A stretch of DNA of 64,000 nucleotides, taken from assembly GCA_963663275.1 (NCBI GenBank), contig OY760183.1, positions 3,104,001 to 3,168,000 on the forward strand, read 5' to 3'. Positions 7,512 through 48,603 of this stretch are shown one piece after another. The first letter of the stretch is position 1, and every line of letters begins with the position of its first letter. The notes under the pieces were generated by a model that was not told the DNA's origin, did not search any database, and worked only from the letters and a program-made list of their open reading frames with translations. The position numbers were made by a program, and so were the translations under genes. Source of the DNA: Chloroflexota bacterium. Its GTDB lineage: Bacteria > Chloroflexota > UBA11872 > VXOZ01.

Positions 7512-7658
7512 CTGAAAGGGGTATGTAAATGTCATTCCGAGCGGAGCGAGGAATCTAGGAACGATGAAATGGCAGGGATACGCCTTAGATTCCTCACTCC
7601 GCTGCGCTCCGTTCGGAATGACACGTGATGTCGGATATAGGATACGTACCCCTATCAG
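7512..7658. mobile_element. MITE family A copy 1 (147 bp)
   Basis: Ends CTGAAAGGGGGTA..TACCCCTATCAG; flanks CCCTCAATGGG / CCCTCGATGGG; internal GTCATTCCGAGC REP pair. Confidence 0.8.
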
Positions 7659-8000
7659 CCCTCGATGGGGACGAGGTTATGCTAGAGCCTGCCAAGCCAA
7701 AGAACCGCGGCCCACGCAATACCTACCGCGTTCCTATGAATTCACCTGCCGCAATCGTCGTCCGCCGCTAACCGGGCGCGCTCGCAACGCGCTTTCAGTC
7801 TGATCCCCCACTCGCGCCGCAGCCTCTTCCCTGAGCATGGGTAAAGGCTCGCGGCCTGGTTATCCGCCGAATTCCCTGGAAAACCGCACGCGCCGCGCCA
7901 AAAACCCAGTTCACCATAGCGCCAAGAGCGCATTTCTAGGCAATGCGGGCAATTTTAGTCCGTGCCGCGGTCCGCTCGGTGGCATCCAAAGCTCCTTCTT

Positions 8001-8071
8001 CTAATTCCCAGTATTTATCTAGGGATTTAGGCCGGAATCGCTTGACTCGCCATCTGGGGTTAAGCTACCTT
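8001..8071 (+). promoter_or_regulatory. Putative sigma70 promoter with upstream AT-rich inverted repeat for the iron ABC operon
   Basis: IR CTAATTCCC..GGGATTTAG (8001-8030); TTGACT (8042) and TACCTT (8066), 18-bp spacer. Confidence 0.5.
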
Positions 8072-8077
8072 AATATC

Positions 8078-8257
8078 TGACAATCGGGATAACCCCTCGC
8101 AGGGCGAACGCGCAGGCCGGCGCTCACGTCGAGCGGCGCGCGGGCGCTTTGCCACCGGGGATCCGGTTGGTTGTCAACGTATGTGTCCTGAGGCCTCGAG
8201 ACACACGACGGCTGTTGGTAATTCGCAGGTTAGCTGCACGGAAAGGAGCAGTTCACC
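8078..8257 (+). promoter_or_regulatory. Structured 5' leader, candidate cis-regulatory RNA
   Basis: ~100-nt rod (TGACAA..TTGTCA), hairpin TGTGTC/GACACA, and a hairpin enclosing the SD. Confidence 0.4.
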
Positions 8258-9313
8258 GTGCCCCTAAATCGTCGTACCCTTCTCAAGACATCGCTTGCGG
8301 CGCTGCCGGTTGCCCTCGGAGCGGCATGCGGCGCCGTCAGCATACCTTCCGGTGAACAAGCGGGCGAGGCAACGGTAACCCTCGAGTCACCCTCCCTTAC
8401 GGTCTACTCCGGTCGCAACGAAAGCCTGGTCGGGCCGCTGTTGACGCAGTTCGCGGAAGACACCGGCGTCTCCATTCAGGTAAAATACGGCGGCACCGCC
8501 GAAATCGCGGCGACTATCCTCGAAGAGGGCGATAACAGCCCGGCGGACGTCTTCTACGCCCAGGACGCCGGCGCGTTGGGCGCGCTGCAAGCGGAGGAAC
8601 GACTGGCCGCGCTGTCGGACGACATCCTGGACGCCGTGGAGCCGCGCTTTCGCTCGCCCCAGGGGATGTGGGTCGGCGCTTCCGGCCGCGCCCGCGTGGT
8701 GGTGCACAATACCGATAACGTCAAGCCTGACGACCTGCCGCCGTCGATTCTGGATTTCGTGGCGCCGGAGTGGAAAGGGCGCATCGGCTGGGCGCCCACC
8801 AACGGCTCGTTCCAGGCGTTCGTGACCGCCATGCGCGTGGTGCTCGGCAACGACCGGACCCGCGACTGGCTGGAAGGCATCAAGGCCAATGAGCCTAACG
8901 TCTACCCCAAGAATACGCCCACGGTACAGGCCGCCGTGGACGGGGAAATCGACGTGGGGTTCGTCAACCACTACTATCTCTTCCGCATTCGCGCCGAGCA
9001 GGGCAACGTGCCGGCGGACAATTACTTCCCGCCCAACGGCGACCTGGGCTCGCTCGTCAACGTGGCCGGCGCCGGCATCGTCGCGGGCTCGCAGAACCAA
9101 GACGCCGCCGAGCAGTTCGTGGCCTATCTGCTCTCCCAGCAGTCCCAGGAGTACTTCGCGTCCGAGACCTACGAGTACCCGCTGGCGCGCGGCGTGGCCG
9201 CCCATCCCGACCTGCCGCCGCTCTCCGAGATCCAGACTCCCGACATCGACCTGGGCGACCTGGCCGACCTGCGGGGCACGCTGGAACTCCTGCAAGCGGC
9301 GGAATTGATCTAG
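8258..9313 (+). CDS. fbpA: Fe3+ ABC transporter substrate-binding lipoprotein (FbpA/FutA family), Tat signal
   Basis: NRRTLL..AACG, YSGR, SPADVFY, VNHYY iron-binding tyrosines. Confidence 0.88.
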   Translation: MPLNRRTLLKTSLAALPVALGAACGAVSIPSGEQAGEATVTLESPSLTVYSGRNESLVGPLLTQFAEDTGVSIQVKYGGTAEIAATILEEGDNSPADVFYAQDAGALGALQAEERLAALSDDILDAVEPRFRSPQGMWVGASGRARVVVHNTDNVKPDDLPPSILDFVAPEWKGRIGWAPTNGSFQAFVTAMRVVLGNDRTRDWLEGIKANEPNVYPKNTPTVQAAVDGEIDVGFVNHYYLFRIRAEQGNVPADNYFPPNGDLGSLVNVAGAGIVAGSQNQDAAEQFVAYLLSQQSQEYFASETYEYPLARGVAAHPDLPPLSEIQTPDIDLGDLADLRGTLELLQAAELI

Positions 9314-9328
9314 TAGCATAAGGAGCCT

Positions 9329-10978: not shown

Positions 10979-10987
10979 AATAGGCGC

Positions 10988-12070: not shown

Positions 12071-12142
12071 TTCCGCCCGGCGCGGTATAGTGTGCATGTC
12101 TGGTGTTCGCCTGAGCGTCTGTCAGGAACCCTCTACCGGCCC

Positions 12143-13300: not shown

Positions 13301-13331
13301 GAGCAGCCATCGAGGGAGCCTTCTTCCGCCC

Positions 13332-14531: not shown

Positions 14532-14612
14532 CATGCATCTTCATCGTCCCAAAAACAGCCGGCGCGGAGCCCGTCAGGCCATGAAAGCAGACCGCAGCGT
14601 GTCCGTCACTCC

Positions 14613-14868
14613 TGTAAGTGTCAGGTAATTCATTGACGGATATTGTAGTCGAATTGAGGTGACTTCAGTTCGGCTCACTGCTCGTCCACATGTCATTCCA
14701 AACGGAGCGCAGCGGAGTGTCGAACCCTGTTCGCGGAATCTACAGTGCTGAGCCAATCAGACTTCGCGTAGCATGGACTCTACATTCCTCGCTGCGCTCG
14801 GAATGACAGTAATGATCAACTCTTCCTCCTGGTGGGGGATTCTGTCAACGAATTACCCAACACTTACA
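14613..14868. mobile_element. MITE family C (256 bp, TGT..ACA ends)
   Basis: ~28-bp imperfect TIR TGTAAGTGTCAGGTAATTCATTGACGGA / TCTGTCAACGAATTACCCAACACTTACA; flanks ACTCC / ATTCC. Confidence 0.72.
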
Positions 14869-19228: not shown

Positions 19229-21016
19229 TCATTCAAGCGTCAGCAGGTAGGGATAGTGCGGCTGGCCGCCGGCGATAACCTCGACTTCCAGCGACGGGAA
19301 CTGCTCCCGCAGCCCGTCGGCAACGGTTTCCGCCCCCTCCTCGGTCACGTCGGCGCCGTAGTAGCAGGTGAGCAGTTCGGCGGTCTCCGGCTTCATCCCC
19401 TCGATAACCGCCAACAGCGCGGCCTCCAGACTGTCGTCAGCAGCGCATACCCGGTTGTTCGCCAGCGCCAGCCACTGCCCTTGCGCCACGGCCACGCCGT
19501 CCACGGTGGCGTCGCGGGTGGCGAGGGTCACCGCGCCGTACTGCGTGCTCTCGGCCGCGTCCCGCATGGCGGCCGCGTTCTCGTCGGGGTCGCCATCCGC
19601 TTGAAACGCGAAGAGCGCCGCGATGCCCTGCGCCATCGAATACGTCGGCAGCACGTGCACGGCAGTGTCCGTCAAGCCGCGCGCCTGTTCCGCGGAGAGG
19701 ATGACGTTCTTGTCGTTGGGCAGCACGAAGACGTGTCGGGCATTGACGGCCTCGACGGCCCTATGGATCTCCTGGGTGCTGGGGTTCATGGTCGGCCCGC
19801 CGCTCACCACGGTTGCGCCCAATCCCTCGTAGACCTCTCTCAGGCCCGCGCCGTCCGCCACGGCCACCACGCGCTGCTCGCTCAGTTCGCCCAATGCGCT
19901 CTGTCCACCCGGTGCGCCTCCTTCACCCAGCGCAACCCCTTCGCCCCGCGCGCTCCCCTCGCCCAACGCAACACCTCCGCCCTGTCCACCCCGTTCGCCC
20001 TGAGCCTGTCGAAGGGCCGCCGGCGCCTCCACACCCGGCAGGTCTCCGTCCGCCGCCGCCGACTGCATCCGCTCGTGCTGGTCGTCCATGTTGAAGATTT
20101 CGATGCGGTGGAGGTGGCCCGCGCCGCGCGCCAGCGCCAGCACGTCGCCCGGATTTTCCGTGTGCACGTGCACGCGCACCAGGTCCTCGTCGCCGACCAC
20201 CACCACCGAGTCGCCGCGCGCGGCCACGGCGTCGCGCATCGCCATTACGTCCAGTTCCGCGCCGCTGACCAGGAAGCCGGTGCAATAGCCGTAGAGGGTC
20301 TCCGTGACCGCGGCGATCTCCGGCAGCAAGGCCCGTTCGCTGGTGGGCAGCGCCACTTCCTCTACCGGCTCCCCGGCCGCGTAGCGCCGCGCCCCTTCCA
20401 GCAGCAGCCACAGCCCCTGCCCGCCGGCGTCCACCACACCGGCGTCTCGCAGCACGTCCAGCAACTGCGGCGTGCGCGCCACGGAGCGCTCCGCCGCCGC
20501 GACCGCCGTTGCCAACACCGCGTCAATCGGGGCGTCCGGCGCCAGCTCCTCGCAGGCTTCCGCCGTTTCGCGCGCCACCGTGAGCATCGTGCCTTCTTGC
20601 GGCTCCTGCAACGCCGCGTAAGAGGAATCCGAGGCCGCGCGCAGCGCCCGTGTCAAACCGGCCGCGGTGATCTCCGCCGCGCCCGCGAGCGCTTCCGCCA
20701 CCCCGCGCAGGCACTGCGAAAAGATGACGCCGGAATTGCCCCGCGCGCCCATCAACGCGCCGCGATATACCGCTTGCGCCACCTCGCCGGCGTGGTCGCT
20801 GTCGGCCTGCTTGCCGGCCTGCAAGGCGGCTTCCAGCGTGAGCAGCATGTTGGTGCCGGTATCGCCGTCCGGCACCGGAAAGACGTTCAGCCGGTTGATT
20901 TCCTCTTTATTGGCCGCCAGCAGATGGTAGCCGTACTCCAATGCCCCAATCAGGCTGGCGCCGTCGCCGCTCTCTATCGCCGCCTGCGCCTCATGTCCGG
21001 TTGTCGTATCAGCCAC
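19229..21016 (-). CDS. DAK2 domain protein (fatty acid kinase subunit A-like)
   Basis: LNVFPVPDGDTGTNM, GARGNSG, VVDAGG, HVHT, MNPST, GGQPHY. Confidence 0.9.
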   Translation of the reverse strand: MADTTTGHEAQAAIESGDGASLIGALEYGYHLLAANKEEINRLNVFPVPDGDTGTNMLLTLEAALQAGKQADSDHAGEVAQAVYRGALMGARGNSGVIFSQCLRGVAEALAGAAEITAAGLTRALRAASDSSYAALQEPQEGTMLTVARETAEACEELAPDAPIDAVLATAVAAAERSVARTPQLLDVLRDAGVVDAGGQGLWLLLEGARRYAAGEPVEEVALPTSERALLPEIAAVTETLYGYCTGFLVSGAELDVMAMRDAVAARGDSVVVVGDEDLVRVHVHTENPGDVLALARGAGHLHRIEIFNMDDQHERMQSAAADGDLPGVEAPAALRQAQGERGGQGGGVALGEGSARGEGVALGEGGAPGGQSALGELSEQRVVAVADGAGLREVYEGLGATVVSGGPTMNPSTQEIHRAVEAVNARHVFVLPNDKNVILSAEQARGLTDTAVHVLPTYSMAQGIAALFAFQADGDPDENAAAMRDAAESTQYGAVTLATRDATVDGVAVAQGQWLALANNRVCAADDSLEAALLAVIEGMKPETAELLTCYYGADVTEEGAETVADGLREQFPSLEVEVIAGGQPHYPYLLTLE

Positions 21017-21298
21017 GTCGTACACACCTTTGCTTGCATCGCCGGGCCGCTCGCCGCCTGCCCGTTGCCGGGGAAACTGAGGACTCTCTCAATCACTCGT
21101 CTTGAAATCGCCGCCGGCGCTCTTCGCCCACGCCACCGCGCGTTGGCGGGAGAGCCGCAGACGCCGCTACAGCGCCCGGCATTGAGCGCGCGGCCACTTC
21201 TATGCTACCATTGGGCTTGTACTACGCTCAACATTGCGACAGATTGAACGCGCGGTCGAGAAACTCCACCGGCAAAAGATTGAACTGAGGATAGGCTC

Positions 21299-21511
21299 AT
21301 GGCGGTTTGTGAAATATGCGGCAAAGGCGCGCAGGTAGGCCACAATATCCAGCACCAGGCCTCCGGGCAATGGCGCTACCGTGCCCCAAAGACGCGCAAA
21401 GTTTGGAAAGCGAACGTCCAGAAAGTGCGCCTGCTCATCGAGGGCCGGCTCAAGAAGGTCAACATCTGCACCCGCTGCCTCCGCACCCAAGCCAAAGCCC
21501 CCGCGGTCTAG
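21299..21511 (+). CDS. rpmB: 50S ribosomal protein L28
   Basis: CEICGK..KANVQK..CTRCL; divergent from the DAK2 gene. Confidence 0.93.
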   Translation: MAVCEICGKGAQVGHNIQHQASGQWRYRAPKTRKVWKANVQKVRLLIEGRLKKVNICTRCLRTQAKAPAV

Positions 21512-21557
21512 CCTCGACTGCCTGGGCCTAATCCTCTGCTGCCTCTGGCTAAGAGGG

Positions 21558-21717
21558 CTGACAGTGGTATGAATCCTAAGATCGACTTCACGTGTCATTC
21601 CGAACGGAGCGCAGCGGAGTGAGGAATCTAAAGCGCAGCCCCGCAAATCAGCATCTCTAGATTCCGCGAACCCTGTTCGACGCTGCACTCGGAATGACAC
21701 TCACATTCCCCTGTCAG
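21558..21717. mobile_element. MITE family A copy 2 (160 bp, opposite orientation)
   Basis: CTGACAG..CTGTCAG ends with perfect 11-bp direct repeat GGCTAAGAGGG. Confidence 0.85.
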
Positions 21718-21843
21718 GGCTAAGAGGGCGAGTGAGAAGCTTCCAGCCGAGCGCGGATTGTGGACTTGCTCCACGGCAGGTCCAAGCAAGGCACGCGCTC
21801 CGCGAAGTAAAGCTCAAGGAAGCAGAGTACAAGAGTCCACCGG

Positions 21844-21983
21844 AAAAGTCCGTATCCGTTCGTCCCGAGCTTGTCGAAGGACGAACGGATACGGACTTTT
21901 CGCACCCGATAGGGAAACCCCTGGAGAGGCTTGCAGCGGACCAGAGGTTTCCCTCTCCCTGGGGAGAGGGTTAGGGTGAGGGG
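21844..21983. repeat. Perfect 22-bp-arm hairpin with GAGCTTGTCGAA REP core, followed by a BoxC-like element
   Basis: AAAAGTCCGTATCCGTTCGTCC (21844-21865) and its exact reverse complement (21879-21900); BoxC-like 21951-21983. Confidence 0.75.
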
Positions 21984-21988
21984 AAATC

Positions 21989-22696
21989 CTACCGCAAGGT
22001 TACGTGCACCTCATTCCGCCGGAACCAGGGGATGGTGAATGGCGGGTCGTAGGTGGCGATCTTCCAGTCGCCGTAGTGTTCCAGGCCATTCGCGTTTAGC
22101 CATGCGGCCAGTTGCGCGCGGTGGCGTTCGGCGCTGTGGTTGGTGAATCTGCCGCTAAAGCGAATGCTGGCCACCCGGCGCTGCTCCACCTGGCGCAGCC
22201 TGACCCGGTGGTTAGTCGGCAGCGGCGCCGTGTCGTAGGTATAGCCCTCCGGCAAGACGAAGGCCATCGTCCAGGACTCGATTGCTTCCCCGGCCAGTTT
22301 CCCGGCGTAGCCGCGTTCGCCAACCGGGCGCGGTTCCACCAAGACCGGAACCGTCATCGCCATTTCTTCCGACGGAGCCGCGCCGGCGGGTTCAACCAGC
22401 ACCGGCGCGGTCATGTCAATGCTCTGGCGGCTTCGATTTTCCCCGGTAATGTACCCGTAGAGCGGCTGGAATGAACTGTTCGTTGCCCGGTCGAACGACC
22501 CGGCAAGCGTAATCTCGGCCATCACGTAGCCCGCGTAATCGCGAATCTCGATGTTGCCCTCTTTCACCGCGACGTCGTAGGCGGGCTCACCGTACTCGCT
22601 GCCAAAGAACGAGCCGAAGAGCAACGACCTGAAGAGATATGCCCCCGATCCCAGCAAAACCAGGATTGCCAAAACCACGACCGTTCTCCAAATCAT
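21989..22696 (-). CDS. SOUL heme-binding family protein
   Basis: N-terminal TM helix, IEIRDY, LYGYITG, MTAPV, FSG, YDPPFTIPWFRRNEV. Confidence 0.88.
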   Translation of the reverse strand: MIWRTVVVLAILVLLGSGAYLFRSLLFGSFFGSEYGEPAYDVAVKEGNIEIRDYAGYVMAEITLAGSFDRATNSSFQPLYGYITGENRSRQSIDMTAPVLVEPAGAAPSEEMAMTVPVLVEPRPVGERGYAGKLAGEAIESWTMAFVLPEGYTYDTAPLPTNHRVRLRQVEQRRVASIRFSGRFTNHSAERHRAQLAAWLNANGLEHYGDWKIATYDPPFTIPWFRRNEVHVTLR

Positions 22697-23005
22697 GCGA
22701 ATCGCCGTCTTTCCCGTGCGCCAAGCCTCTGAATCCATTATTCCACAGTTTCTCAACCGCCGCGCGGGTGTGAGGCAGCGTCGCTCCGGCGGGGGACAAG
22801 CCCCCGCGCTACGAGACTTGCTGCTCGGCTGGCGAAATTCGTACGGGCAGGGACATTCGCCCCCAATGGCAGAGTTCGCGCTATTCTGCCAAACTGGTGG
22901 AACGAGTCCGGTTTTGCGCCGGTTCCTCTTCTTCCCAGGGAGAGGGAGCGCCAGCGCCCGCCGGGCCAGTTTTGCTACCGGACGGAAAGGAGCCTTGCGG
23001 CCACC

Positions 23006-23815
23006 ATGGCGAACACGGGGCAGTCTGCGCGCGCCGCCGTGCGGCTGGATCGACTGCTGGTAGAGCGGCGCTACTTTCCCAGCCGCGAGAAGGCCGTCTT
23101 CAGCATCCGCGCGGGCGGCGTGCGGGTCGATGGCCGCGCGCTCACCAAACCGGCCGCGACGGTGAATCCCCATGCGCGCATCGAGGTTGACACGCGGAGC
23201 GCGCTGCGTATCGGCCGGGGCGAGCGCAAACTGGCGGGCGTGCTGGAGCGCTTTGGCATCGATTGCGCCGGCAAGGTAGCCCTGGACGTGGGCAGCGGCG
23301 CCGGCGGCTTCACCTGGCGCCTGCTGCAACTGGGCGCGGCGCGGGTCTACGCGGTGGACGTGGGACGCGATCAACTCCATCCCGAACTCCGGGCCGACCC
23401 CCAGGTCACCGTGTTCGAGCAGACGGACGCGCGCCAACTCACGGCGTTGCCAATAGCGCCCCATCTGGCCGTGATCGACGTTTCTTTCATTTCACTGCGG
23501 GCAGTGCTGCCGCCGGTGCGCACCGTGCTGCGCGCGGACGCCGCCATGGTGGCGCTGCTCAAGCCGCAGTTCGAGACCGCTACGGTTGCCAGCGCCGCGG
23601 ACGCCGGCCTCACGCCGGCGCCCTCGCCGCGCCGGCCGGAGACGCAAGACCGCATCCGCGCGGCCTTTCGCGACTGGTGCGCCGCAAACGCTCTCACCGT
23701 GCGGGATGAGATGGCCAGCCCGCTACCGGGCAAGCACGGAACCCGCGAAGTCTTCTTCCACCTTACCAACGCAAACTCCGGTGCGCCTGCCTCCAGTGAC
23801 CTTTCTCGCAGTTGA
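23006..23815 (+). CDS. tlyA: TlyA family rRNA methyltransferase
   Basis: S4 domain RLDRLLV, DVGSGAGGFT, DVSFISL, KPQFE. Confidence 0.88.
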   Translation: MANTGQSARAAVRLDRLLVERRYFPSREKAVFSIRAGGVRVDGRALTKPAATVNPHARIEVDTRSALRIGRGERKLAGVLERFGIDCAGKVALDVGSGAGGFTWRLLQLGAARVYAVDVGRDQLHPELRADPQVTVFEQTDARQLTALPIAPHLAVIDVSFISLRAVLPPVRTVLRADAAMVALLKPQFETATVASAADAGLTPAPSPRRPETQDRIRAAFRDWCAANALTVRDEMASPLPGKHGTREVFFHLTNANSGAPASSDLSRS

Positions 23816-23854
23816 AAGCCCTCTAAGACCGCAGCCATGTTCCCTTTCCAATTG

Positions 23855-24001
23855 CCGACAGGGGTAGGCAAACGTCATTTCGAGCGGAGCGAGAAATCTA
23901 GTATTGCTGGTTTTGCAGGGTGGCGCCTTAGATTCCTCTCTCCGCTGCGCTCCGTTAGGAATGACACGAGAAGTCGGATGTAGAGTGCCTACCCCTGTCA
24001 G
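23855..24001. mobile_element. MITE family A copy 3 (147 bp)
   Basis: CCGACAGGGGTAGGCA..TGCCTACCCCTGTCAG; flanks CTTTCCAATTG / GTTTCCGATTG. Confidence 0.8.
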
Positions 24002-24182
24002 GTTTCCGATTGGAAAAGGGCTAGGGAGAAGGCGAATGTCCTCTATCCGGCCCGTTTTCGCCGGTACGCGCAGTCCGCGCAAGCCTACCCCTCACCCCGG
24101 CCCTCTCCCCAGGGAGAGGGGGCAGAATCGCGCTTCTTACGAGAAAGGAAGCCTTGCGGCGCCGCCTAGTCCGCCGCACTGC

Positions 24183-25796
24183 CTAGTCCGCCGCGCCGCC
24201 GGGGGCGGGTTCGGGCTGCGATGTGTCGGACGCATCGGTCTCGCTTGCGCCGGAGCTTTGCATCAGGGCGCTGAACGGGTGGAGTTTGTGCAGGCAGTGG
24301 TTGCCCGTATCCGCCACGTAGACGTGGTCCCGCTCATCCACCGCAATCCCGCACGGGTCCGAAAACTGCCCCTGCTGGCCCGCCACCAGCGTGCCCCATT
24401 GAAAGAGCGGCTCACCGGCGGGCGACAACTCCTGAATGCGGTTGTTCCACGTATCGGCCACGTAGATCCTGCCCCGGCGATCGAGCGCAATGCCGTTCGG
24501 ATTGCGGAACTGGCCCGGTTCGGCGCCTTCCGCGCCCCATTGCTGCGCCGCAGCGCCGTCGGACGTGAGTTTCTGAATGCGGTGGTTCCCCGAATCGGCC
24601 ACGTAGACCCAGCCTTCGTAGTCCACCGCGATTCCCACCGGCGCGCGAAACTCTCCCGGCTCGTCGCCGTGCGCGCCCCACAGCGCCAGCAACTCGCCCT
24701 TCGGGGAAAACTTCTGCACGCGATGGTTGCCGGTATCGGCCACGTAGACGTTGCCGTCCGTGTCCACCGTAATGCCGCTGGGCGTGCGGAATTGCCCGGG
24801 TTTCGCGCCCTGCTCGCCCCATTGCGCCAGCGGCTCGCCGTCCGCGGAAAGTTTCTGAATGCGGTGATTGAGCGTGTCGGTCACGAACACCTGGCCTTCC
24901 GCGTCAACCGTTAGTGCACGCGGCGAACGAAATTGGCCCGCCTTCTGCCCCGTCGTCCCCCATTGGGCGACCGCCTCGCCGGCGGCGGAGAGTTTCTGCA
25001 CGCGGTTATTCAGCGTATCGACGGCGTACATATTGCCGTGCCCGTCCAGCGCCACGTCGTGCGGAGAACTGAACTGGCCCGGCCGCGAGCCGCCCTCCCC
25101 CCAGATTGCGATACTGCGGCGGCGCTGGCCGGCTTGCACGCGGCGGACGAGCCGCACGGCCCACACCAACGATACGACGAGAGCGATGAGCGAGAGCGGC
25201 AGCAACCACAGCGCGCCCAGCAACAACGGAAAGTCGTACAGGGCATGCAACGCCACCGGGGCCAGCCAGGCAATCAGCAGGCTCCGTCTGCGGCGCTCGC
25301 TATCGAATACCGCCTGGGCGATGAAATAGCCCATGATTGCGCCCAGTGCGGCGTGGACCGGTAGCGAGGTGAGCGCGCGCAGGAGCGCCCCCAGCGCATC
25401 ACCTTCCAACACGTAGGCGATATTCTCCAACGTCGCGAAACTCAGCGAGGCGACCACACCGTACACCACGCCATCGAACGGCTCCGCCAGCCGTTTGCGC
25501 TGGCAGGAGTAGTTGGCAAGCACGATGAACTTGAACGACTCCTGGAGTACGGCCGCGCCCAGGATTGCCTGTATCAACGACACCAGTAAGCGGCTGCCCG
25601 TGGCGCCGTACGCAACTGAGAAGATGATTGAAATGGGAAAGGTCAGGATGATAACCGGCAGGATGGCGAGGATGCCAAACCCGAGGGTTGCCCAGAGGAT
25701 GGCGCGGGGTTGGGGAAACTGGGGCCGGGTGTGCAGGACCCACATGATAACAAGCCCCGGCGCCACCGCGGCGGTAAACATCAATAGTGGTTGCAA
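24183..25796 (-). CDS. PrsW-family intramembrane protease domain fused to an NHL-repeat beta-propeller
   Basis: TM domain with QESFK, FATLEN, VHA, HALYD; six GQF..P.GIAVD..VYVADT.N.RIQK repeats; TTG start after GGAGG. Confidence 0.85.
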   Translation of the reverse strand: MQPLLMFTAAVAPGLVIMWVLHTRPQFPQPRAILWATLGFGILAILPVIILTFPISIIFSVAYGATGSRLLVSLIQAILGAAVLQESFKFIVLANYSCQRKRLAEPFDGVVYGVVASLSFATLENIAYVLEGDALGALLRALTSLPVHAALGAIMGYFIAQAVFDSERRRRSLLIAWLAPVALHALYDFPLLLGALWLLPLSLIALVVSLVWAVRLVRRVQAGQRRRSIAIWGEGGSRPGQFSSPHDVALDGHGNMYAVDTLNNRVQKLSAAGEAVAQWGTTGQKAGQFRSPRALTVDAEGQVFVTDTLNHRIQKLSADGEPLAQWGEQGAKPGQFRTPSGITVDTDGNVYVADTGNHRVQKFSPKGELLALWGAHGDEPGEFRAPVGIAVDYEGWVYVADSGNHRIQKLTSDGAAAQQWGAEGAEPGQFRNPNGIALDRRGRIYVADTWNNRIQELSPAGEPLFQWGTLVAGQQGQFSDPCGIAVDERDHVYVADTGNHCLHKLHPFSALMQSSGASETDASDTSQPEPAPGGAAD

Positions 25797-25834
25797 TACT
25801 GCCTCCGTAATCGTTTCGCGGCGACTGGCGGCCT

Positions 25835-28189: not shown

Positions 28190-28241
28190 CAGGCTCTCTT
28201 CCGCCGTTTGTTGCTTTGGTTGCTTGGGGCCGCGTCCGCCG

Positions 28242-29780: not shown

Positions 29781-29891
29781 GAGAGACTCCTCACTAATTG
29801 GATTGACCGCCCAATCGTCCGCGCGCCCGCCTTGGCTGCGGCAAACCAACGACTTAACTCGTCCCGCAATATATAGCTCTGTGCAGACTGC

Positions 29892-30150
29892 CCTTCGACA
29901 GGCTCAGGGCGAATGGGAAGCGCCTCAGGACGAACAGGAAGCCGCTCGGGACGAACGGGAAGCGGCAAGGGTTAACGAAGAACCGCTATACCCGTTCGCG
30001 CTGAGCCTGTCGAAGCGTCCGCTGAGCCCGTCGAAGCGTCCGCTAAACCTGTCGAATCGCTCAAACCGTAGGGGTGCCCCTCGTGGGTACCCCCACCGGC
30101 GTACAACGGGACTGCCCTCGCCAAGGCACCCACAAGGGGCACCCCTACGG
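29892..30150. repeat. REP cluster: CTTCGACAGGCTCAG palindromes with ~21-bp degenerate tandem copies and a GTAG inverted pair
   Basis: CCCTTCGACAGGCTCAGGGCG; GCTGAGCCTGTCGAAGCG-type x3; GTAGGGGTGCCCC..GGGGCACCCCTAC. Confidence 0.7.
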
Positions 30151-30211
30151 CTGAGGGCACAAAACGCCCAGCACGCGCGCGGGCCACGATTGCGTTTTAG
30201 CCCACCGCCGC

Positions 30212-31633
30212 CTAGATGCCAAGCTCCTTGCGCCACTCCTCGGCGATGATGTTCATCTGCTCTTCAGCCGTGGCCAACGCCTCCTGGATGCCCACCTCAC
30301 CGTTCCAGATCGAGCCGACCCATTTGCCCGAGAGCACTTGCTGGCGCATCTGGTCGGAGCCGGGCACGCCAAAGCCCAGCGTTGACGTGCGGTACTGCAT
30401 GTTCTCCGACATGTGGAGCACGAACGGATCGTTCTCGTGGAACTCCTCGGACAGCGTTGCCGACTTGCGTACCGGCACCCGGTCGAAGGTCTTGGTGAAG
30501 GCCAAGGTGTTCTCCGGCCGCGCCAGGAACTCAAGCAACGCGAACGACTCTTCCGCCACCTCGGTCCAACCGGAAACCATGTGAATCCACGCGCCGCCCA
30601 GGCTCACCTGCCGCGCGGCATTGGCGGGTAAGGGGAAGCCCGTGTACCCGAACTCGTAGTCCGGATCGATCGGGCGTATCTGCTGCTTGCGCTCAGCGTA
30701 GGTCATGTAGATGCTGGCGCACTTGGCGTTGATGAGCGCCGCTCCCCGGTCTCTGCCGGAAGGCCGCGCTGATTCTTGAAACTCCTTGATGGCGGCGAAC
30801 CCGTCCTGCAGGTCCCACAGCCGCTTGACGAACGTAAACGCCTCGACCCCCTCAGGCGTATTGAAAGTCATCTTGGTGCGGTCTTCGTTGGTGCGGCTGC
30901 CGCCAAGTTGCAGCAGCGGGAGCATGAAGAGCCACGTGCCGTTGGAGCCCCAGTCGGGCGGAAAACCCGCCACCGTCAGCTTGCCCGCGGCGTCCTTCTG
31001 CGTGGTCTTCTGGATGGCTTCCTCGAATTCGTCCCACGTCTGCGGCCCCACCGCCGGATCCAGACCGCCCTTGATGTAGAGGTCGATGTTCATGTAGAGC
31101 ACGCGCATGTCCGGGCCGTAGGGCATGCCGAACACCCGGCCGTCGCGCCACACCACAGGCTCCATCAGGCCTTCCCACACGTCGTCCATGTCGAGGCCCG
31201 TCAGCTTGATGTAGTCATTCAGAGCGAGAACCGTGCCCTGCAAGCCCCGGTCGATCGGCGTGCCTTCGCCGCCGGTCACCACGTCGTAGGGGATGTTGGC
31301 GGCCGCGGCGGCCGCGAACGCCTCGTTGCGATTGCCGGTGTACGGCTCCACGAGCAGATTGATATTGTCAAATTCCGCGCTGAACGCCTCCATGAGACCG
31401 GCGGACACGTGCCCTTCCTCATGGAACTTGAAGGCGGGATTGGGCACGAAGACCACGTCTACCGGCTCGGCCGCCGGCGGCGCCGCTTCCGCCTTCTGCT
31501 CGGCGGGCTTCTCTTCGGCCATCTCCGGCTGGGTCGCCACCGCGCCGCAGGCGGCAAGGGCGGCCATCACGGGAACACTGCTTGCCCCAATGAGCACTTT
31601 TCGTCGGGTTAGCGCCGTCGCTTGCTTGGACAT
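30212..31633 (-). CDS. Extracellular solute-binding lipoprotein (carbohydrate family 1), Tat signal
   Basis: TRRKVL..LAACG, GMP, LYMN, PQTWDEF; no cognate permease in the window. Confidence 0.85.
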   Translation of the reverse strand: MSKQATALTRRKVLIGASSVPVMAALAACGAVATQPEMAEEKPAEQKAEAAPPAAEPVDVVFVPNPAFKFHEEGHVSAGLMEAFSAEFDNINLLVEPYTGNRNEAFAAAAAANIPYDVVTGGEGTPIDRGLQGTVLALNDYIKLTGLDMDDVWEGLMEPVVWRDGRVFGMPYGPDMRVLYMNIDLYIKGGLDPAVGPQTWDEFEEAIQKTTQKDAAGKLTVAGFPPDWGSNGTWLFMLPLLQLGGSRTNEDRTKMTFNTPEGVEAFTFVKRLWDLQDGFAAIKEFQESARPSGRDRGAALINAKCASIYMTYAERKQQIRPIDPDYEFGYTGFPLPANAARQVSLGGAWIHMVSGWTEVAEESFALLEFLARPENTLAFTKTFDRVPVRKSATLSEEFHENDPFVLHMSENMQYRTSTLGFGVPGSDQMRQQVLSGKWVGSIWNGEVGIQEALATAEEQMNIIAEEWRKELGI

Positions 31634-32070
31634 CTCACGTCTCCTCTCAAAGTTCCCACTTGCTTCACAACCAAGGTTCGTAAAGGAACACGCCTCCTTT
31701 GCGCTGCGCTACGAACCAATTGCCACAATAACGGCAGACACCGCTTGCATGAGAGTATACCACGCTCCGCATCTCTTCAAATCCGGCACTACCCAAAGAC
31801 GCCGACCCGCGCGGCTAACCCAAGCGCCCTGCCAAAAGTAGTGGACAAGCCCTAACGCTATCGCCCACCCGTAGCGCGGGGGCTTGTCCCCCGCCAGGGG
31901 AAATCACCCACCTGTTGTCGCACCACCGTAGCGCGGGGGCTTGCCCCTCGCCTGGGGAAAACGCCCAAACGTCGTCGCCCAACCGTAGCGCGGGGGCTTG
32001 CCCCCCGCCAGGGGAAAACGCCCAAACGTCGTCGCCCTCCCGTAGCGCGGGGGCTTGTCCCCCGCCTGGG

Positions 32071-32217
32071 CAGATAGGGGTAAGCACGTGTCATTCCGAG
32101 CGCAGCGAGGAATCTAGAATTGATGGTCTTGCAGCGTAGCGCCTTAGATTCCTCTCTCCGCTGCGCTCCGTTCGGAATGACACGTGAAGTCGATTGTAGA
32201 GTACATACTCCTGTCAG
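32071..32217. mobile_element. MITE family A copy 4 (147 bp)
   Basis: CAGATAGGGGTA..CTCCTGTCAG; 10-bp direct repeat CCCGCCTGGG. Confidence 0.8.
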
Positions 32218-32284
32218 CCCGCCTGGGGAAAGCGCCCACCTGTTGTCGCACCACCATGGCGCGGGGGCTTGTCCCCCGCCTGGG

Positions 32285-32431
32285 CAGACAGGGGTAAGCA
32301 CGTGTCATTCCGAGCGCAGCGAGGAATCTAGAATTGATGGTCTTGCAGCGTAGCGCCTTAGATTCCTCTCTCCGCTGCGCTCCGTTCGGAGTGACACGTG
32401 AAGTCGATTGTAGAGTACATACCCCTGTCAG
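32285..32431. mobile_element. MITE family A copy 5 (147 bp)
   Basis: CAGACAGGGGTA..TACCCCTGTCAG; 10-bp direct repeat CCCGCCTGGG; near-identical to copy 4. Confidence 0.8.
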
Positions 32432-32471
32432 CCCGCCTGGGCGAAGAGCAGGTGCGCGGCTTCCCGGACGA

Positions 32472-33302
32472 CTAGAGTCTGCGCCCCGCCGCAATCACCG
32501 CCGCCATCGGCAAACTGATGCTGTCTCCATCGCCAAGCGCCAGCACGTTTTCCCTTACCGCCTGGCGAATAGCGGCCAGCGCCGCCGGCGACTGTGCCTG
32601 CAAGAGCGCGCCGGTGCGCACCGCGCCGTGGTAGAACGTTTCGAAGAGGGTATCCGCGTGGGGCATCTCCCACGCGACGCGCGCCTCCTCCACCGCAGGC
32701 GCGTTGAAACCCGTCTCTTCCAGAACGCGCCTGCTCTCAGCCGGATCGCTGAAGCGGAAGAAGGGCGGGCCGTCCGGCAGCGCCACGTCCATAGCGCCAT
32801 GCTCGGCAATGGCGTCGAGCATAATCTTGAAACCCAGGCAAATCTCGGGCGCGCCCCATACGCTGTAGGCAACCCGGCCGCCCGGCCGCAGCACGCGATA
32901 CGCCTCGGCCAGCGCCTTCTCCGGCTGAGCCACGTGCAGCAGGCCGAAGTTCATGACAACCGCGTCGAAATCGGCATCGGGAAACGGCAGGTCTTCGGCG
33001 CTGCCGACGTGAAACGCAAGCGCGGGATACTGCCGCCGCGCCACCGCCACCGCCGCTTCCGCAAAGTCGATGCCGACCACCGCGGCCCCGCGTTCCGCCG
33101 CCGCGGCCGCCACGTAGCCCGGCCCGCAGGCTACGTCCAGCACGCGGCGCCCCGCCGCCACGCCGCCGGCATCGAGCAGGGGCGCGATAAAGCGCGTGGT
33201 CAAAGCCGCGAAATAGCGGTGGTAGTCATCCGCCACCCGCTCCCAACCGGCCCTTTCGAATTCGTAGAAGGCGCTCACGGCGCCCTGATCGCGCTCCGCC
33301 AT
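32472..33302 (-). CDS. Class I SAM-dependent methyltransferase
   Basis: VLDVACGPG, AEDLPFPD, RVLRPGG. Confidence 0.88.
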   Translation of the reverse strand: MAERDQGAVSAFYEFERAGWERVADDYHRYFAALTTRFIAPLLDAGGVAAGRRVLDVACGPGYVAAAAAERGAAVVGIDFAEAAVAVARRQYPALAFHVGSAEDLPFPDADFDAVVMNFGLLHVAQPEKALAEAYRVLRPGGRVAYSVWGAPEICLGFKIMLDAIAEHGAMDVALPDGPPFFRFSDPAESRRVLEETGFNAPAVEEARVAWEMPHADTLFETFYHGAVRTGALLQAQSPAALAAIRQAVRENVLALGDGDSISLPMAAVIAAGRRL

Positions 33303-35181: not shown

Positions 35182-35425
35182 GCGGAGAGACGGCCCCCGC
35201 AAGACGCGCCGGCGTCCACCGTTGTACGCGGTACACGAGGCAAAATTGACTCAGGGTCACGCCCCCAAACAGTCCGGTTAATGTCACTTGTACGTTGGAC
35301 ACGACTGTCATTCCGAGCGGAGCGAGGAATCTAAGCGCGGCAGGGCGCCTGAGGAACATCAAACGCCTGATTCACACCGCCGCCGCCATTGCGAAGCACA
35401 CGCCCGATAAGAGGAGCAAGGGACT

Positions 35426-43875: not shown

Positions 43876-44026
43876 CGCCCGCTTCACTTTGTGTATGATG
43901 TATACGGCCGATAAATTACCCCTATCCGTCATTCCGGCGAAAGCCGGAATCCAGAGGTGGGTAGGAGACAATTGCCGTATCAACAGCGCCCGGAGACGGC
44001 AAAAGCGCATTGAAGGAGGCACACCC

Positions 44027-45361: not shown

Positions 45362-45505
45362 TCGGCCGGGCCCCCTTGTCGATTTCTTTTTGTGGAATTG
45401 GCGGCAGGATCACGATTGAGGCCGGTAGCGTAGGTTTGAAACCTGCGCACATTGGCGGACAACCGCTATCACACAAATGGCGGTCATTGCGGACGGGAGG
45501 GAATG

Positions 45506-46666
45506 ATGGCGCAATACCACGACGCAGAATCCGGCATCACTTTGGACAATGAGTTCGAAAGCGCCAGCGCGCGGGCGTTTAGCAAGCTCGGCCCCGGGCA
45601 ATACCAGGTTGATTTGCTCATAGAGAACTACAGCCCGGACTACCCGGTCGTCTGGGAGTACATGTTCTGCTTCCGGGTGCGGTCGCAGGCGGACGAAGCG
45701 CAGAGGGTCACGTTTCGCGTCATGCAGGGGCGCGGCGGCATCAGCTACATCGACGGCCCGCACTTCGCCAAGCGCAACGGCAATTGGGCGCTCGTGCCCC
45801 GTTCCCAGACGCACATGAGCAATGAGTACGTCGAGGTCACCCTCGACGTAGCGCCGGGCGACGAGTTCCTGCTGGGCAATCATCCCTTCCCCACGCCTGG
45901 CGAGGTAGAGTCCGCCATGCACGCCACCGCCGCGGCCTTAGACGACTTCTCGGTGCGCGAGTTTGGCCGCACGCCGGAGGATCGCCCGCTGCTGGCGCTG
46001 GAATCGGAGCCGCGCGACAAAGTCGTTATCGTCTTCGATACCATGCAGCCCGCCGAGCCGGGCGACGTGCCGATACTCTTCCTGGCCCACTGGCTCAGCA
46101 GCCGGTCCGCCGAGACCGAAAAGCTGCTGGAGGAATACCAGTTCTGCCTGCTGCCCCTGACCAACCCGGACGGCACAGCCCACGGCCATTCGGTAACCAA
46201 CGCCGCCGGCGAGGTGCCGCGCTGCCACTTCGAGGACGCCAAGCTGGGCAAACCCGTTCCCGGTGAAAGCAAGGTTATTTGGGACTACCTTGCCGCGAAA
46301 GCGCCCACCCTCTTCATCGAGTTCCACATCCACTACCTGGTGAGCGCCCCGCACAAGCTGGTGGGCATCGCCGTGAACGAACCCTCGGACGAACGGGGCG
46401 TGGTCGCGCTGCCGGCGGCCACCGTCCTCTGGGGCGAAATGCTCAAGCTGAACAGCCACTGGCGGGCTCGCCTGATCGAGGCCGAAAGCGATACCTTCCG
46501 CAACGCCCTGGACGCAACCCTGGCCCGCGATTTCGGCACCTTGGCATACGTCTACCAGATATACGCGCCCACCGTGGAGGCCGCCTGCGCCCACGCCGTG
46601 GACGTGACGCGCGCTACGCTGCAAGGCGCGGCCGCGGCATCCTCCCTGACGCTCCGCAACGCCTGA
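45506..46666 (+). CDS. M14 zinc carboxypeptidase-like protein
   Basis: FES N-terminal domain, FGRTPEDR, PLTNPDG, IEFH; first Zn motif degenerate. Confidence 0.6.
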   Translation: MAQYHDAESGITLDNEFESASARAFSKLGPGQYQVDLLIENYSPDYPVVWEYMFCFRVRSQADEAQRVTFRVMQGRGGISYIDGPHFAKRNGNWALVPRSQTHMSNEYVEVTLDVAPGDEFLLGNHPFPTPGEVESAMHATAAALDDFSVREFGRTPEDRPLLALESEPRDKVVIVFDTMQPAEPGDVPILFLAHWLSSRSAETEKLLEEYQFCLLPLTNPDGTAHGHSVTNAAGEVPRCHFEDAKLGKPVPGESKVIWDYLAAKAPTLFIEFHIHYLVSAPHKLVGIAVNEPSDERGVVALPAATVLWGEMLKLNSHWRARLIEAESDTFRNALDATLARDFGTLAYVYQIYAPTVEAACAHAVDVTRATLQGAAAASSLTLRNA

Positions 46667-46809
46667 GCGGGCTCCGCTTGCGCTTTGGGATTGCTCAGCT
46701 TGCGCGCCGGTTCAATCCGGCGCGGGCCGCCGCTATATGTCATAATGGCAGGTGAGCCGTGTACTATTGCCGCGTTGCGCCGGGCGCGCAAGCAAAGGAG
46801 CGTTGCGCT

Positions 46810-47457
46810 ATGCAGAACCTAAATCCCGTAATCTGCGGTATTCGCCGGATTGGACGGCGCTTCCGCCCGCGTGGGCAGCGCGCGGCGCCCGCCGCACGCG
46901 CCGGCCTGGCCGCGCTCGCGCTCTGCCTCGCCTGGGTCCTCCTGGCGGGCTGTGAAGGCAGCGCGGCCTACTCGTCCGAGGCCTCCGCCGACAGCGCCGA
47001 CAGCGTGGTCGTCCATGAAAACCCCAACGGCGAGCAAATCAACCTGGACAGCAGCCAGAACGAGGCGCTCTACACCGCGCAACCCCTGGACCTGGTGAAG
47101 TGGACCAAATTGCCGGCCATCGAGGACGGCGGGCTGACGGCCGCCGGCGAGGTGCTGGACGGCGCGCGGCTCTTCAATCCCCAGGACGGCGAGGGTTTCG
47201 CTTTCGAGGTGCGCTACAAGACCCACGAGGAACCCATGGTGGTGCTCCTGCCCGACCTGGGCCCCGCCAAAGTGTGGGAGTCGTTCCTCACGATCGCGCC
47301 CACCGACTTTGAAATCTCCGGCGCGACGTTCAGCTTCCGCGCCTACTCGCCTCTGCTAATGGACGTCGGCTCCGGCGACTTGGAACTGCGCGTCTACGGC
47401 TACGACAAGGACGGCAACCCGGCCCTGCTCGCCGTCCTCACCATGGGCGAGGATTGA
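46810..47457 (+). CDS. Hypothetical lipoprotein
   Basis: AAGGAG SD; hydrophobic stretch ending LLAGC; host-like codon usage. Confidence 0.7.
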   Translation: MQNLNPVICGIRRIGRRFRPRGQRAAPAARAGLAALALCLAWVLLAGCEGSAAYSSEASADSADSVVVHENPNGEQINLDSSQNEALYTAQPLDLVKWTKLPAIEDGGLTAAGEVLDGARLFNPQDGEGFAFEVRYKTHEEPMVVLLPDLGPAKVWESFLTIAPTDFEISGATFSFRAYSPLLMDVGSGDLELRVYGYDKDGNPALLAVLTMGED

Positions 47458-47464
47458 TGGGTGT

Positions 47465-47589
47465 CCCCTCTCCCCGGGGAGAGGGTTAGGGTGAGGGGAA
47501 AAAGCATTGCGGTTCGGCTTGGCAGCGCAACCCGGCCGGTGGACGAAGAGACTCCCTCTCCCAGTGGGGAGAGGGCCGGGGTGAGGGGG
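47465..47589. repeat. Two BoxC-like palindromes
   Basis: CCCTCTCCC..GGGAGAGGG..GGGTGAGGGG twice; also at ~24088, ~48604 and ~57358. Confidence 0.75.
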
Positions 47590-47647
47590 AAAGAGCGCCT
47601 GCCCCAGCGCGCGCCGGACGGTAGTATCTCAATCCCGCGCGGCTGGC

Positions 47648-48046
47648 TCACTCCGTCGCGCGCACGCGCTCCAACGCGCCCGGCCACGCCAGGATGCGCT
47701 CATCGGCGGTGACCAATTGGTGGCCTTCCAGCGCCGTAGCCACGATGATGCGGTCCGCCGGGTCGCCGTGCAGGTCCGAAAGCTGTGCGGCCCGGACGCC
47801 GATCGCGCCGCTCACCGGGATTTCCACCACGCCCTGCGCCAACTGCTCATCGCGCCAGCGGCCCACGTCATCCGGAAACCTGAGCCGCCCCTTCGCGTGC
47901 AGCAGCGCAACTTCCCAGAACGAAATCGCGGAAACGCACACCCCGTTGGCGAGCCATGCCGCATCGATCGCGTCACGCGCGCGCGGACCCAGGCGGTCGC
48001 TGCCCACTCTCAGCCACAGCATCACGTGCGTATCCAGGATGATCAC
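47648..48046 (-). CDS. vapC: PIN-domain toxin VapC
   Basis: ILDTH, SAISFWE, HGDPADRIIVATA. Confidence 0.92.
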   Translation of the reverse strand: MIILDTHVMLWLRVGSDRLGPRARDAIDAAWLANGVCVSAISFWEVALLHAKGRLRFPDDVGRWRDEQLAQGVVEIPVSGAIGVRAAQLSDLHGDPADRIIVATALEGHQLVTADERILAWPGALERVRATE

Positions 48047-48345
48047 GGTTCCAGCGTCCGCTCAGGCTCGCTCTCGGCCTCCCATTCCTCGTCCAACGGC
48101 GCGACGATGTCGCCGAGAATCTCGATGCGCCCTTTATCCACGCCAAAGAGGCTCCGCGGGCGGTCTTGATACGGCATCAGGCGCGAGACCGGACGCCCGT
48201 GCTTGGTAATCACGATCTCCTCGCCGCTTGCCGCCACCTCGTCCATCAGTTTCAGGCACTTCGCCTTGAACTCCGACGCCTTCATCACCCGCGCCCCGCC
48301 GGTATCGATGCTGTTGTCGTTACCCATGCCGCTGTCGTCTCCCAT
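48043..48345 (-). CDS. Phd/YefM family antitoxin (start may be 48285-48288)
   Basis: MKASEFKAKCLKLMDEV..IVITKHGRPV; overlaps the vapC start. Confidence 0.9.
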   Translation of the reverse strand: MGDDSGMGNDNSIDTGGARVMKASEFKAKCLKLMDEVAASGEEIVITKHGRPVSRLMPYQDRPRSLFGVDKGRIEILGDIVAPLDEEWEAESEPERTLEP

Positions 48346-48377
48346 GCCCCGCCATCCTGGTTTGGAGGATTTTGGTC

Positions 48378-48410
48378 AATTGTACCATAGTCATGACCAT
48401 AGTCATAACC
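48378..48410 (-). promoter_or_regulatory. TA promoter -10 with overlapping operator repeats
   Basis: Minus strand GGTTATGACTATGGTCATGACTATGGTACAAT: TGnTACAAT plus ATGACTATGG direct and palindromic repeats. Confidence 0.55.
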
Positions 48411-48444
48411 GCGCTGATGATACCCTCTTGTCCCCTCTCCCTGA

Positions 48445-48603
48445 CTGACAGGGGTAGGCAATCTTGAATCGGCTTGACGTGTCATTCCGAACGGAGCGCA
48501 GCGCAGTGTCGAACCCTGTTCGCGGAATCTAGAGCGGAGAGCCGCAAATCCAGCATTCTAGATTCCTCGCTCCGCTCGGAATGACAGTTGCATCCCTCCT
48601 GTC
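48445..48603. mobile_element. MITE family A copy 6 (right end degenerate), within a BoxC-like element
   Basis: CTGACAGGGGTAGGCA left end; internal REP pair; CCCTCTCCC on both sides. Confidence 0.65.

Follow-up and report, generated by a model that had tools for sequence, protein, structure and literature searches.

IS231A prefers a palindromic target of the GGG-N5-CCC type. For the IS231 subgroup and the MIC231 cassettes, direct repeats of 10-12 bp and marked insertion specificity are described (De Palmenaer et al. 2008, PMC2266710). ISRm22 from Sinorhizobium meliloti is an autonomous, REP-targeting insertion sequence (IS) of the IS4 family, reported with 6-bp repeats (Tobes & Pareja 2006, PMC1525189), and REP-specific IS are also described in the IS3 family (IS1397, ISKpn1) and the IS110 family (ISPpu9/10) (PMC1525189; PMC12288879). 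REPINs are moved by RAYT (PMC3116915). 

The elements analysed here, termed MITE-A, and an IS with the same ends from other Chloroflexota (the partner IS) resemble ISRm22 in belonging with IS4-family DDE transposases and in having copies within REP-type palindromes, on or close to the symmetry axis of a palindromic consensus. The repeats, however, are 6 bp for ISRm22 and 11 bp for the partner IS, and ISRm22 is autonomous whereas MITE-A is a 147-bp non-autonomous element, present in about 150 copies, for which no transposase was found in its genome. Repeats of 10-12 bp, insertion specificity and non-autonomous derivatives reduced to their ends are shared with IS231 and MIC231; the IS231 ends begin with CAT and the elements measure at least 1450 bp, whereas here the ends begin with CT, the IS measures about 1325 bp, the core target is CCC-N5-GGG, and the hosts are Chloroflexota and not Bacillus. 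IS1397, ISKpn1 and ISPpu9/10 likewise insert specifically into REP hairpins but are autonomous, use transposases of other families with other chemistries, and make short duplications or none. REPINs share the inverted doublet of short repeats, the long hairpin and the high copy number but have neither DDE-type terminal inverted repeats (TIRs) nor target duplications. No description of MITE-A or of MITEs in Chloroflexota was found in literature searches, and a word search of a 2024 review of prokaryotic MITEs found neither "IS4" nor "nested".

As argued below from sequence comparison, MITE-A is very probably a non-autonomous derivative of an IS4-family IS, moved in trans into hairpin repeats. 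The following features were located in the window (the whole 64-kb stretch of DNA that was analysed), with copy lengths measured from inverted end to inverted end.

7512..7658, plus strand: MITE-A copy 1, 147 bp
14687..14811, minus strand: only the inner inverted-repeat module (model positions 16-116), lacking MITE-A ends, within a different outer element
21558..21717, minus strand: MITE-A copy 2, 160-bp variant
23855..24001, plus strand: MITE-A copy 3, 147 bp
32071..32217, plus strand: MITE-A copy 4, 147 bp, adjoining a GTAG-REP
32285..32431, plus strand: MITE-A copy 5, 147 bp, with the same perfect flanking repeat CCCGCCTGGG as at copy 4
35301..35334, plus strand: arm fragment of the inner module
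48445..48600 (end approximate), minus strand: MITE-A copy 6, about 156 bp

The six copies of 147-160 bp claimed in the preliminary description were all confirmed by sequence and alignment at the coordinates that it gave, and they belong to a genome-wide family. The 12-nt end motif (≤ 2 mismatches) occurred 17 times in the window against 2.4 ± 1.5 times in shuffled sequences, with 17 or more in 0 of 100 shuffles. The window had no match to Rfam at gathering scores, and the segment 31900-32600 had none at E values up to 1. Copy 1 is flanked by 11-bp direct repeats with one mismatch (CCCTCAATGGG at 7501-7511 and CCCTCGATGGG at 7659-7669) and sits in a ccttcccc...ggggaagg-type hairpin, part of the end of an IS30-family element. 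Copy 2, in which one arm carries an additional small hairpin of 14 nt, has a perfect 11-bp duplication (GGCTAAGAGGG, 21547-21557 and 21718-21728). At copy 3 the direct repeats are 10 bp with one mismatch and a one-base offset (TTTCCAATTG at 23845-23854 and TTTCCGATTG at 24003-24012), and the target is the palindrome CCCTTTCCAATTGGAAAAGGG. Copy 4 has a perfect duplication (CCCGCCTGGG, 32061-32070 and 32218-32227). Copy 6 has one perfect and one degenerate end and lies in a ccctctcc...ggagaggg hairpin. Copies 4 and 5 do lie in the GTAG-REP array, as had been described, but do not count as separate insertions; their 98% identity and identical flanks, at a period of 214 bp, fit a single insertion that was later duplicated, copy 5 being a tandem duplicate of the REP-plus-MITE unit.

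Across the source genome the family comprises 232 loci, 147 of them full length, and 123 of the full-length copies have two recognisable ends (each ≤ 3 mismatches to the 12-nt motif). The TIRs are 16-18 bp and begin CTGACAGGGGTA. Lengths of these 123 copies fall at 144-147 bp (81 copies), 156-161 bp (31) and 165-189 bp (11), with no coding capacity. An exact direct repeat of 10-12 bp flanks 46 of the 123 copies, and 70 have one with at most one mismatch, against 1 of 123 in a control with flanks displaced by 15 bp. When end shifts of ± 2 and up to two mismatches were allowed, a duplication was present in 93 of the 123 (53 of 11 bp, 18 of 10 bp and 13 of 12 bp) and was not recognisable in the other 30; at some of these the two flanks come from different hairpin types. 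The repeated sequence varies from locus to locus while its length has a mode of 11 bp. Tabulation of flanks genome-wide places a target site duplication (TSD) at most copies. Seven copies at seven different loci are 100% identical, and 25 match the consensus at 95% or more; by this measure of copy identity, the young subfamily of seven shows the last burst to have been recent.

Insertion was claimed to be mostly into palindromic repeats, and this was borne out. In a relaxed test, 114 of 123 copies adjoin a half-site from one of the three hairpin families, as do 400 of 5000 random positions (8%); in a strict test, 65 of the 93 duplication-bearing sites lie in palindromic repeats. The three intact families cover 0.50% of the genome. 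A logo of 42 clean sites has C at position 1 and G at position 11 in 42 of 42, with symmetric flanks, and the preferred target approximates a TCC-CCC-N5-GGG-GGA palindrome, which occurs mostly in loops and inner stems of hairpins from the three abundant families. Like REPs, the targets are short GC-rich palindromes of high copy number, with 342 ctctcc...ggagag hairpins and 400-589 GTAG-REP cores counted. Since 52 of the 55 exact ccttcccc hairpins adjoin the end sequence of the IS30-family element, the ccttcccc class is, as judged from this adjacency, the terminal hairpin of another mobile element and not a free REP. A stem test centred on the duplication discriminated weakly, with at least six of eight outer pairs in 6 of 93 occupied sites (6.5%) against 1.6% of all CCC-N5-GGG sites, and therefore the duplication is often off-centre in the hairpin. 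As many as 1005 of 1226 CCC-N5-GGG sites lie outside repeats and are unoccupied; many of these are probably in genes, so selection and targeting are inseparable. REPs may serve as safe landing sites, as had been proposed, and selection against genic insertions could also give the enrichment.

Empty sites were found among paralogues. The resident IS30-family element has nine copies, three of them with a MITE in the terminal hairpin, and removing MITE-A plus one repeat from the three filled copies restores an intact end as in the empty ones. Other genomes yielded no precise empty site: the closest species (G011), whose flanking blocks are 78-84% identical, is without both of the MITE-A copies that were tested, but its spacers are too diverged to align; copy 2 lies in the gap that separates the conserved blocks. 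Contigs of four public runs were compared with positions 20500-33000 of the window, and in one of them (run X6, record 26) position 23811 is followed by seven other letters and then by 24181. In a relative of about 95% identity, copy 3 is therefore missing along with 222 bp of flank, which is neither a precise excision nor an empty site. Short joints and loose ends of run contigs at hairpins were not used, as their sides of 20-30 nt could come from any repeat copy.

The same data bear on the possibility that the flanking repeats are not TSDs and that the copies belong to a larger composite repeat spread by recombination or segmental duplication. Tandem spread with the REP does occur, in the window (32071 and 32285) and elsewhere in the genome (1081631 and 1081929, and a triple near 3248031), and because targets resemble each other, about 5% of random pairings between the flanks of different copies agree over 10-13 bp. 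Against this, the ends are sharp and constant beside at least three unrelated flank types and occur in both orientations relative to asymmetric loops, the flanking repeats are direct and not inverted (an inverted match of at least 9 bp in only 3 of 123 copies), filled and empty IS30-family copies differ exactly by MITE-A plus one repeat, and an autonomous element with MITE-A ends exists. This explanation is already largely refuted and is extremely improbable.

The autonomous element with the same termini was recovered by scanning a genome collection with the 16-nt end, which returned elements of 1322-1330 bp, with ends identical to those of MITE-A, in Dehalococcoidia bacterium MAGs (genomes G098-G102). 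All five examined have direct repeats, three of them perfect at 11 bp, one of 11 bp with one mismatch and one of 13 bp with one mismatch, so that the duplication is about one helix turn in each, as for the IS4 family. Insertion sites are ccttcccc or ctctccc hairpins. The single ORF encodes 412 aa and matches Pfam PF01609 at 30.1 bits (cut-off 23); D124, D187 and E290 (spacings 63 and 103) do not vary among 10 homologues, and Y283, R286, E290 and K297 are likewise invariant. These residues agree with the IS4-family pattern given in PMC2266710, D(60-110)D(100-150)E together with Y(2)R(3)E(6)K; the best NCBIfam IS4 model scored 92.4 bits, below its cut-off of 152, and no PDB chain matched by sequence. 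One genome (G098) has 15 IS matches, 13 of them at 95-100% identity. The IS-bearing genomes also contain a 204-bp deletion derivative and MITEs of 287-290 bp with the same ends, and the 147-bp form was not found in those examined.

These findings agree with the claim of a DDE-mobilised MITE, in that an IS4-family element elsewhere has the same 16-18 terminal bases, an 11-bp duplication and hairpin targets. The features expected of a MITE (small size, TIRs, a target duplication of fixed length and an autonomous element with matching ends) are all present. The more specific attribution to IS10/IS50-type elements stands for the IS4 family and fails for the two subgroups, whose direct repeats are 9 bp (IS10) and 8-9 bp (IS50) (PMC2266710, Table 1) against 11 bp here; placement in either was ruled out by duplication length. 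As compared by size, ends and repeat length, the IS10 subgroup is otherwise similar, at 1200-1350 bp with ends 5'-CT (same table).

The partner IS was found in other Chloroflexota genomes and not in the source genome, where the partner transposase had no match at E values up to 10 (best tblastn match, E 0.45). Of the 16 other members of the genus, 15 likewise yielded no cognate transposase, and the sixteenth (G014) has only a broken relative of 39% identity. The PF01609 elements of the genus (33 loci, in 15 of 17 genomes) have no inverted pair of end motifs. Pairs of end motifs 250-6000 bp apart in the source genome were considered as a possible autonomous element and all proved to be separate MITE copies. 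In the genomes searched, MITE-A and the transposase were not found together, and movement in trans by the partner IS is argued from identical ends, duplication length and targets.

A resident enzyme would account for the recent burst without an outside source, and the single candidate belonging to the right family is a four-copy element in GTAG-REP loops. It is of the IS4 family (NF033592, 156.9 bits, cut-off 115), also targets REP hairpins, and has a duplication of about 13 bp, about one helix turn. Its ends (CAATGTTGTCGCATTAA...), however, are unlike those of MITE-A, the MITE end motif and its reverse complement are absent from them at all four loci, and its protein aligns with the partner transposase at only 27% over 124 residues (E 0.039). 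That this element moves MITE-A is very unlikely.

The interior of MITE-A had been described as enclosing a pair of REP palindromes. The arms are instead halves of one long hairpin: singly they are weak (-2.7 and -5.0 kcal/mol) and together they pair along its length, and the whole of MITE-A can fold likewise. The inner inverted-repeat module is common to several elements, being found alone and within other outer elements. Its arm of 28-32 nt recurs at 97-100% identity in three of the five IS-bearing genomes that were checked. At least three different outer elements contain this arm, which could be under selection of its own as a functional site and not be filler.

An inverted doublet in this position, together with one Y1_Tnp gene in the genome (G000:C1:383050-383358), might suggest a REPIN-like doublet moved by that single RAYT-like Y1 transposase. 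Y1 transposition is not known to yield TIRs or target duplications, whereas MITE-A has TIRs and 11-bp duplications. Its arms are weak hairpins, its ends are shared by a DDE element, and the 400-589 GTAG-tagged REPs, among which the Y1 gene sits, are a separate sequence family. The earlier distinction from RAYT-driven REPINs holds on these grounds, and the probability of mobilisation by RAYT is close to nil.

For the preferred reading, a derivative of an IS4-family IS moved in trans, the following mechanism can be outlined. In MITE-A, transposase-binding ends (16-18 bp) would frame an inner inverted repeat that is unrelated to them. A DDE transposase provided in trans would bind both ends, and excision would be by cut and paste, as we infer from the IS4 family. 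Joining to target DNA with an 11-bp stagger would leave the 11-bp duplication, and the short palindrome in hairpin repeats described above would be the preferred target of the transposase. As no cognate transposase was found in the source genome, the copies are either fossils or moved only when the IS is present. Given the recent burst, and as no cognate transposase was found in this genome or in 15 of its 16 sister species, MITE-A might also be maintained by visiting transposases that the chromosome does not encode, brought in for instance on transient DNA, with the arm possibly a functional site; this variant is unlikely. Co-occurring Chloroflexota that carry the IS, outside the 98 genomes searched as the class of the source genome, would be one example of such a source.

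MITE-A is ordinary selfish DNA in an unusually clear form, the MITE of a REP-targeting IS4-family element. A recent burst set against no transposase gene found is the single point that deserves follow-up. For annotation, about 230 repeat loci are explained, and an abundant and almost wholly unnamed transposase clade (1448 protein clusters) is tied to its ends, duplication length and target. In this genome a MITE and three IS families (IS4, IS30 and IS481) occupy the same few hairpin repeats, mutually nested, a clear and countable case of the known theme that REP-type hairpins are landing pads for mobile DNA.

Six copies of MITE-A, a short gene-less transposon family, were confirmed in the window by an alignment in which they could be matched end to end. 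Each runs from inverted end to inverted end:

Copy 1, window 7512-7658
Copy 2, window 21558-21717
Copy 3, window 23855-24001
Copy 4, window 32071-32217
Copy 5, window 32285-32431
Copy 6, window 48445 to ~48600

The direct repeats that the preliminary description had placed around these copies were also found. The 12-nt end motif (≤ 2 mismatches) occurred 17 times in the window versus 2.4 ± 1.5 times in shuffled sequence. Within one contig of a public sequencing run (X6), window 23812-24180 (369 bp; copy 3 plus 43 bp of left and 179 bp of right flank) is replaced by 7 letters, with ~95% identity on both sides. A 1.2-kb segment (window 45422-46618) recurs once, at C1:3091332-3092528 of the same genome (G000), ~11.5 kb before the window, and contains a 404-aa ORF that by eye lacks transposase features.

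The window is contained in one 3.53-Mb contig (C1, 64% G+C). A profile of the six copies was searched against G000, and merging of the 432 raw matches left 232 loci, of which 147 are full length and 85 partial. Of the full-length copies, 123 had two recognisable ends, and these 123 fell into length classes of 144-147 bp (81), 156-161 bp (31), and 165-189 bp (11); in the six-copy alignment, longer forms carry an extra 14-nt hairpin in one arm. Seven copies at seven separate loci were 100% identical, and clean 11-12 bp repeats were read at five of them. With a further 25 copies at ≥ 95% identity to the consensus and a median copy at 84%, the family comprises both old layers and one of very recent date. 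Tandem REP-plus-MITE units with the same flanks were seen at window 32071-32431 (period 214 bp), at C1:1081631 and 1081929 (~298 bp), and at C1:3248031, 3248361, and 3248732 (~330-370 bp). These units are local duplications rather than repeated insertions, and the number of independent insertions first counted in the window must be corrected for the pair at 32071-32431.

Exact direct repeats flanked the 123 two-ended copies at 10 bp in 9, 11 bp in 30, and 12 bp in 7 cases, and 70 had a 10-12 bp repeat with ≤ 1 mismatch. The same was true of 1/123 copies when flanks were displaced by 15 bp, and inverted flank matches of ≥ 9 bp were found in 3/123; these counts show that the inverted ends do not continue into the flanks. 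Allowing end shifts of ±2 and ≤ 2 mismatches, a repeat was found in 93 copies (11 bp in 53) and none in 30. The commonest target has an asymmetric loop, which runs in the same direction on either side of MITE-A; both element orientations occur relative to this loop. The strongest single evidence for target duplication by MITE-A is a comparison of filled and empty IS30-family ends: 3/9 copies of this element carry MITE-A inside their terminal ccttcccc-loop-ggggaagg hairpin, and in silico deletion of the MITE and one repeat restored the end that the six empty copies have. At C1:441853, 938161, and 1342729, MITE-A has a ccttcccc-type left flank and a ctctcc-type right flank, as would be expected from recombination between two copies.

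In the 42 clean 11-bp sites the duplicated core is CCC-N5-GGG, with C at position 1 and G at position 11 in 42/42, and it is bordered symmetrically by cTCC and GGAg. Sorting of the 93 duplication-bearing sites gave 30 in ccttcccc hairpins, 25 in ctctcc...ggagag hairpins, 10 at the side of GTAG-REPs, and 28 "other" sites (many of them degenerate ccttcccc or ctctcc types). Under a relaxed test, a hairpin half-site lay ≤ 24 bp from an end in 114/123 copies versus 400/5000 random positions; intact hairpins (55-142 ccttcccc, 342 ctctcc...ggagag, and 400-589 GTAG-REP) jointly make up 0.50% of the genome. Given that the duplication is off-centre at GTAG-REPs and many ctctcc hairpins, and that scoring stems with the duplication at their centre separated occupied sites from background only weakly, the data fit recognition of palindromic sequence better than recognition of the hairpin itself. 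All 1005 of the 1226 genomic CCC-N5-GGG sites that lie outside repeats are empty of MITE-A, and part of the site bias may be purifying selection in genes. Base composition predicts ~3900 such sites; GGG-N5-CCC occurs 1698 times.

The ccttcccc "REP" is the end of another mobile element, since 52/55 exact hairpins adjoin an IS30-family end. This nine-copy element (C1:40127-41302 and eight more; NF033563, 237 bits) has the MITE-A-preferred hairpin at its right end, and by eye 5/9 copies are flanked by the halves of a ccctctcc...ggagaggg hairpin. All seven copies of an IS481-family element (C1:75968-77248 and six more; NF033577, 290 bits) likewise lie between such halves. A four-copy IS4-family element of ~1.24 kb (C1:381613-382874, 1063147, 1097960, and 3017998; NF033592, 156.9 bits) is seated in GTAG-REP loops with a duplication of ~13 bp; the genome's single Y1_Tnp (RAYT-like) gene (383050-383358) adjoins one copy. 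By these placements, three IS families and MITE-A share the same landing pads.

The whole of MITE-A folds as a single long hairpin (DNA −41.6 kcal/mol, z −7.4; RNA z −6.3), within which each arm of the inner module, the inverted repeat between the ends, is on its own a weak hairpin. "REP doublet" is therefore the wrong name, and the REP cargo initially ascribed to the element needs correcting. In G000, 55 loci (including window 14687-14811) have the module but no MITE-A ends; reading of flanks placed some within two or more other outer elements, which have different inverted ends of their own, and some inside a longer MITE-A variant. No duplication was found around the module, and Rfam gave no match.

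None of the PF01609 elements of G000 and 14 sister genomes had MITE-A ends. The 16-nt end was searched in one genome per species, yielding at least 116 stretches, of which 80 were retrieved. The matches listed included many chance matches in unrelated phyla and, in MAGs titled Dehalococcoidia bacterium, inverted end pairs 1322-1330 bp apart. These pairs are complete insertion sequences (here, the partner IS) with ends identical to those of MITE-A over 16-18 nt. Direct repeats flanked 5/5 copies examined (three perfect 11-bp, two with one mismatch), and copies were located in ccttcccc and ctctcc hairpins, two types that MITE-A also occupies. The single 412-aa ORF passed Pfam PF01609 (30.1 bits, cut-off 23) and matched NCBIfam IS4 models below their cut-offs. 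D124, D187, and E290 together with Y283-R286-E290-K297 were invariant among ten homologues, so that the transposase conforms to the IS4-family definition in PMC2266710. It belongs to a large clade, almost all of it unnamed (1448 protein clusters at E ≤ 1e-10, one named among the best 120).

Five Chloroflexota MAGs bearing the partner IS (G098-G102) were compared. G098 had 15 matches, 13 at 95-100% identity, which shows the IS to be active there; in G101, all four matches had a stop codon. IS-bearing genomes also held a 204-bp deletion derivative with the same ends, 287-290-bp elements with the same ends enclosing the same inner arms, and composites of 795-998 bp. In G099, G100, and G102 the inner-module arms matched over 28-32 nt at 97-100% identity. 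The 147-bp form was found in none of the five, and three had only the inner module or its arms. Full-length MITE-A was present in genus members G008-G011, G014, and G016, and other members had the inner module only, among the matches listed.

A search of G000 with the 412-aa transposase gave no match at E ≤ 10, and the best tblastn E was 0.45. Among 17 genomes of the genus, one (G014) matched, through a broken relative at 39% identity whose end, as read, resembles that of MITE-A; the best relatives in the 98 genomes searched as the class were 33-48% identical. The sole resident IS4-family element has unrelated ends, and its protein is 27% identical to the partner transposase over 124 residues. 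Even so, MITE-A has produced seven identical copies in this genome.

PMC1525189 describes REP hairpins as targets of five IS families, IS4 (ISRm22) included. According to PMC2266710, duplications made by IS4-family elements are roughly one helix turn long, and the IS231 subgroup shows target specificity. The partner IS resembles the IS10 subgroup in size and CT ends but differs in its 11-bp duplication, and the original IS10/IS50 assignment needs revision accordingly. Literature searches found no description of MITE-A. The main inference of the preliminary description was right: MITE-A is a genuine and clearly delimited family of MITEs belonging to an IS4-family element that targets REPs.
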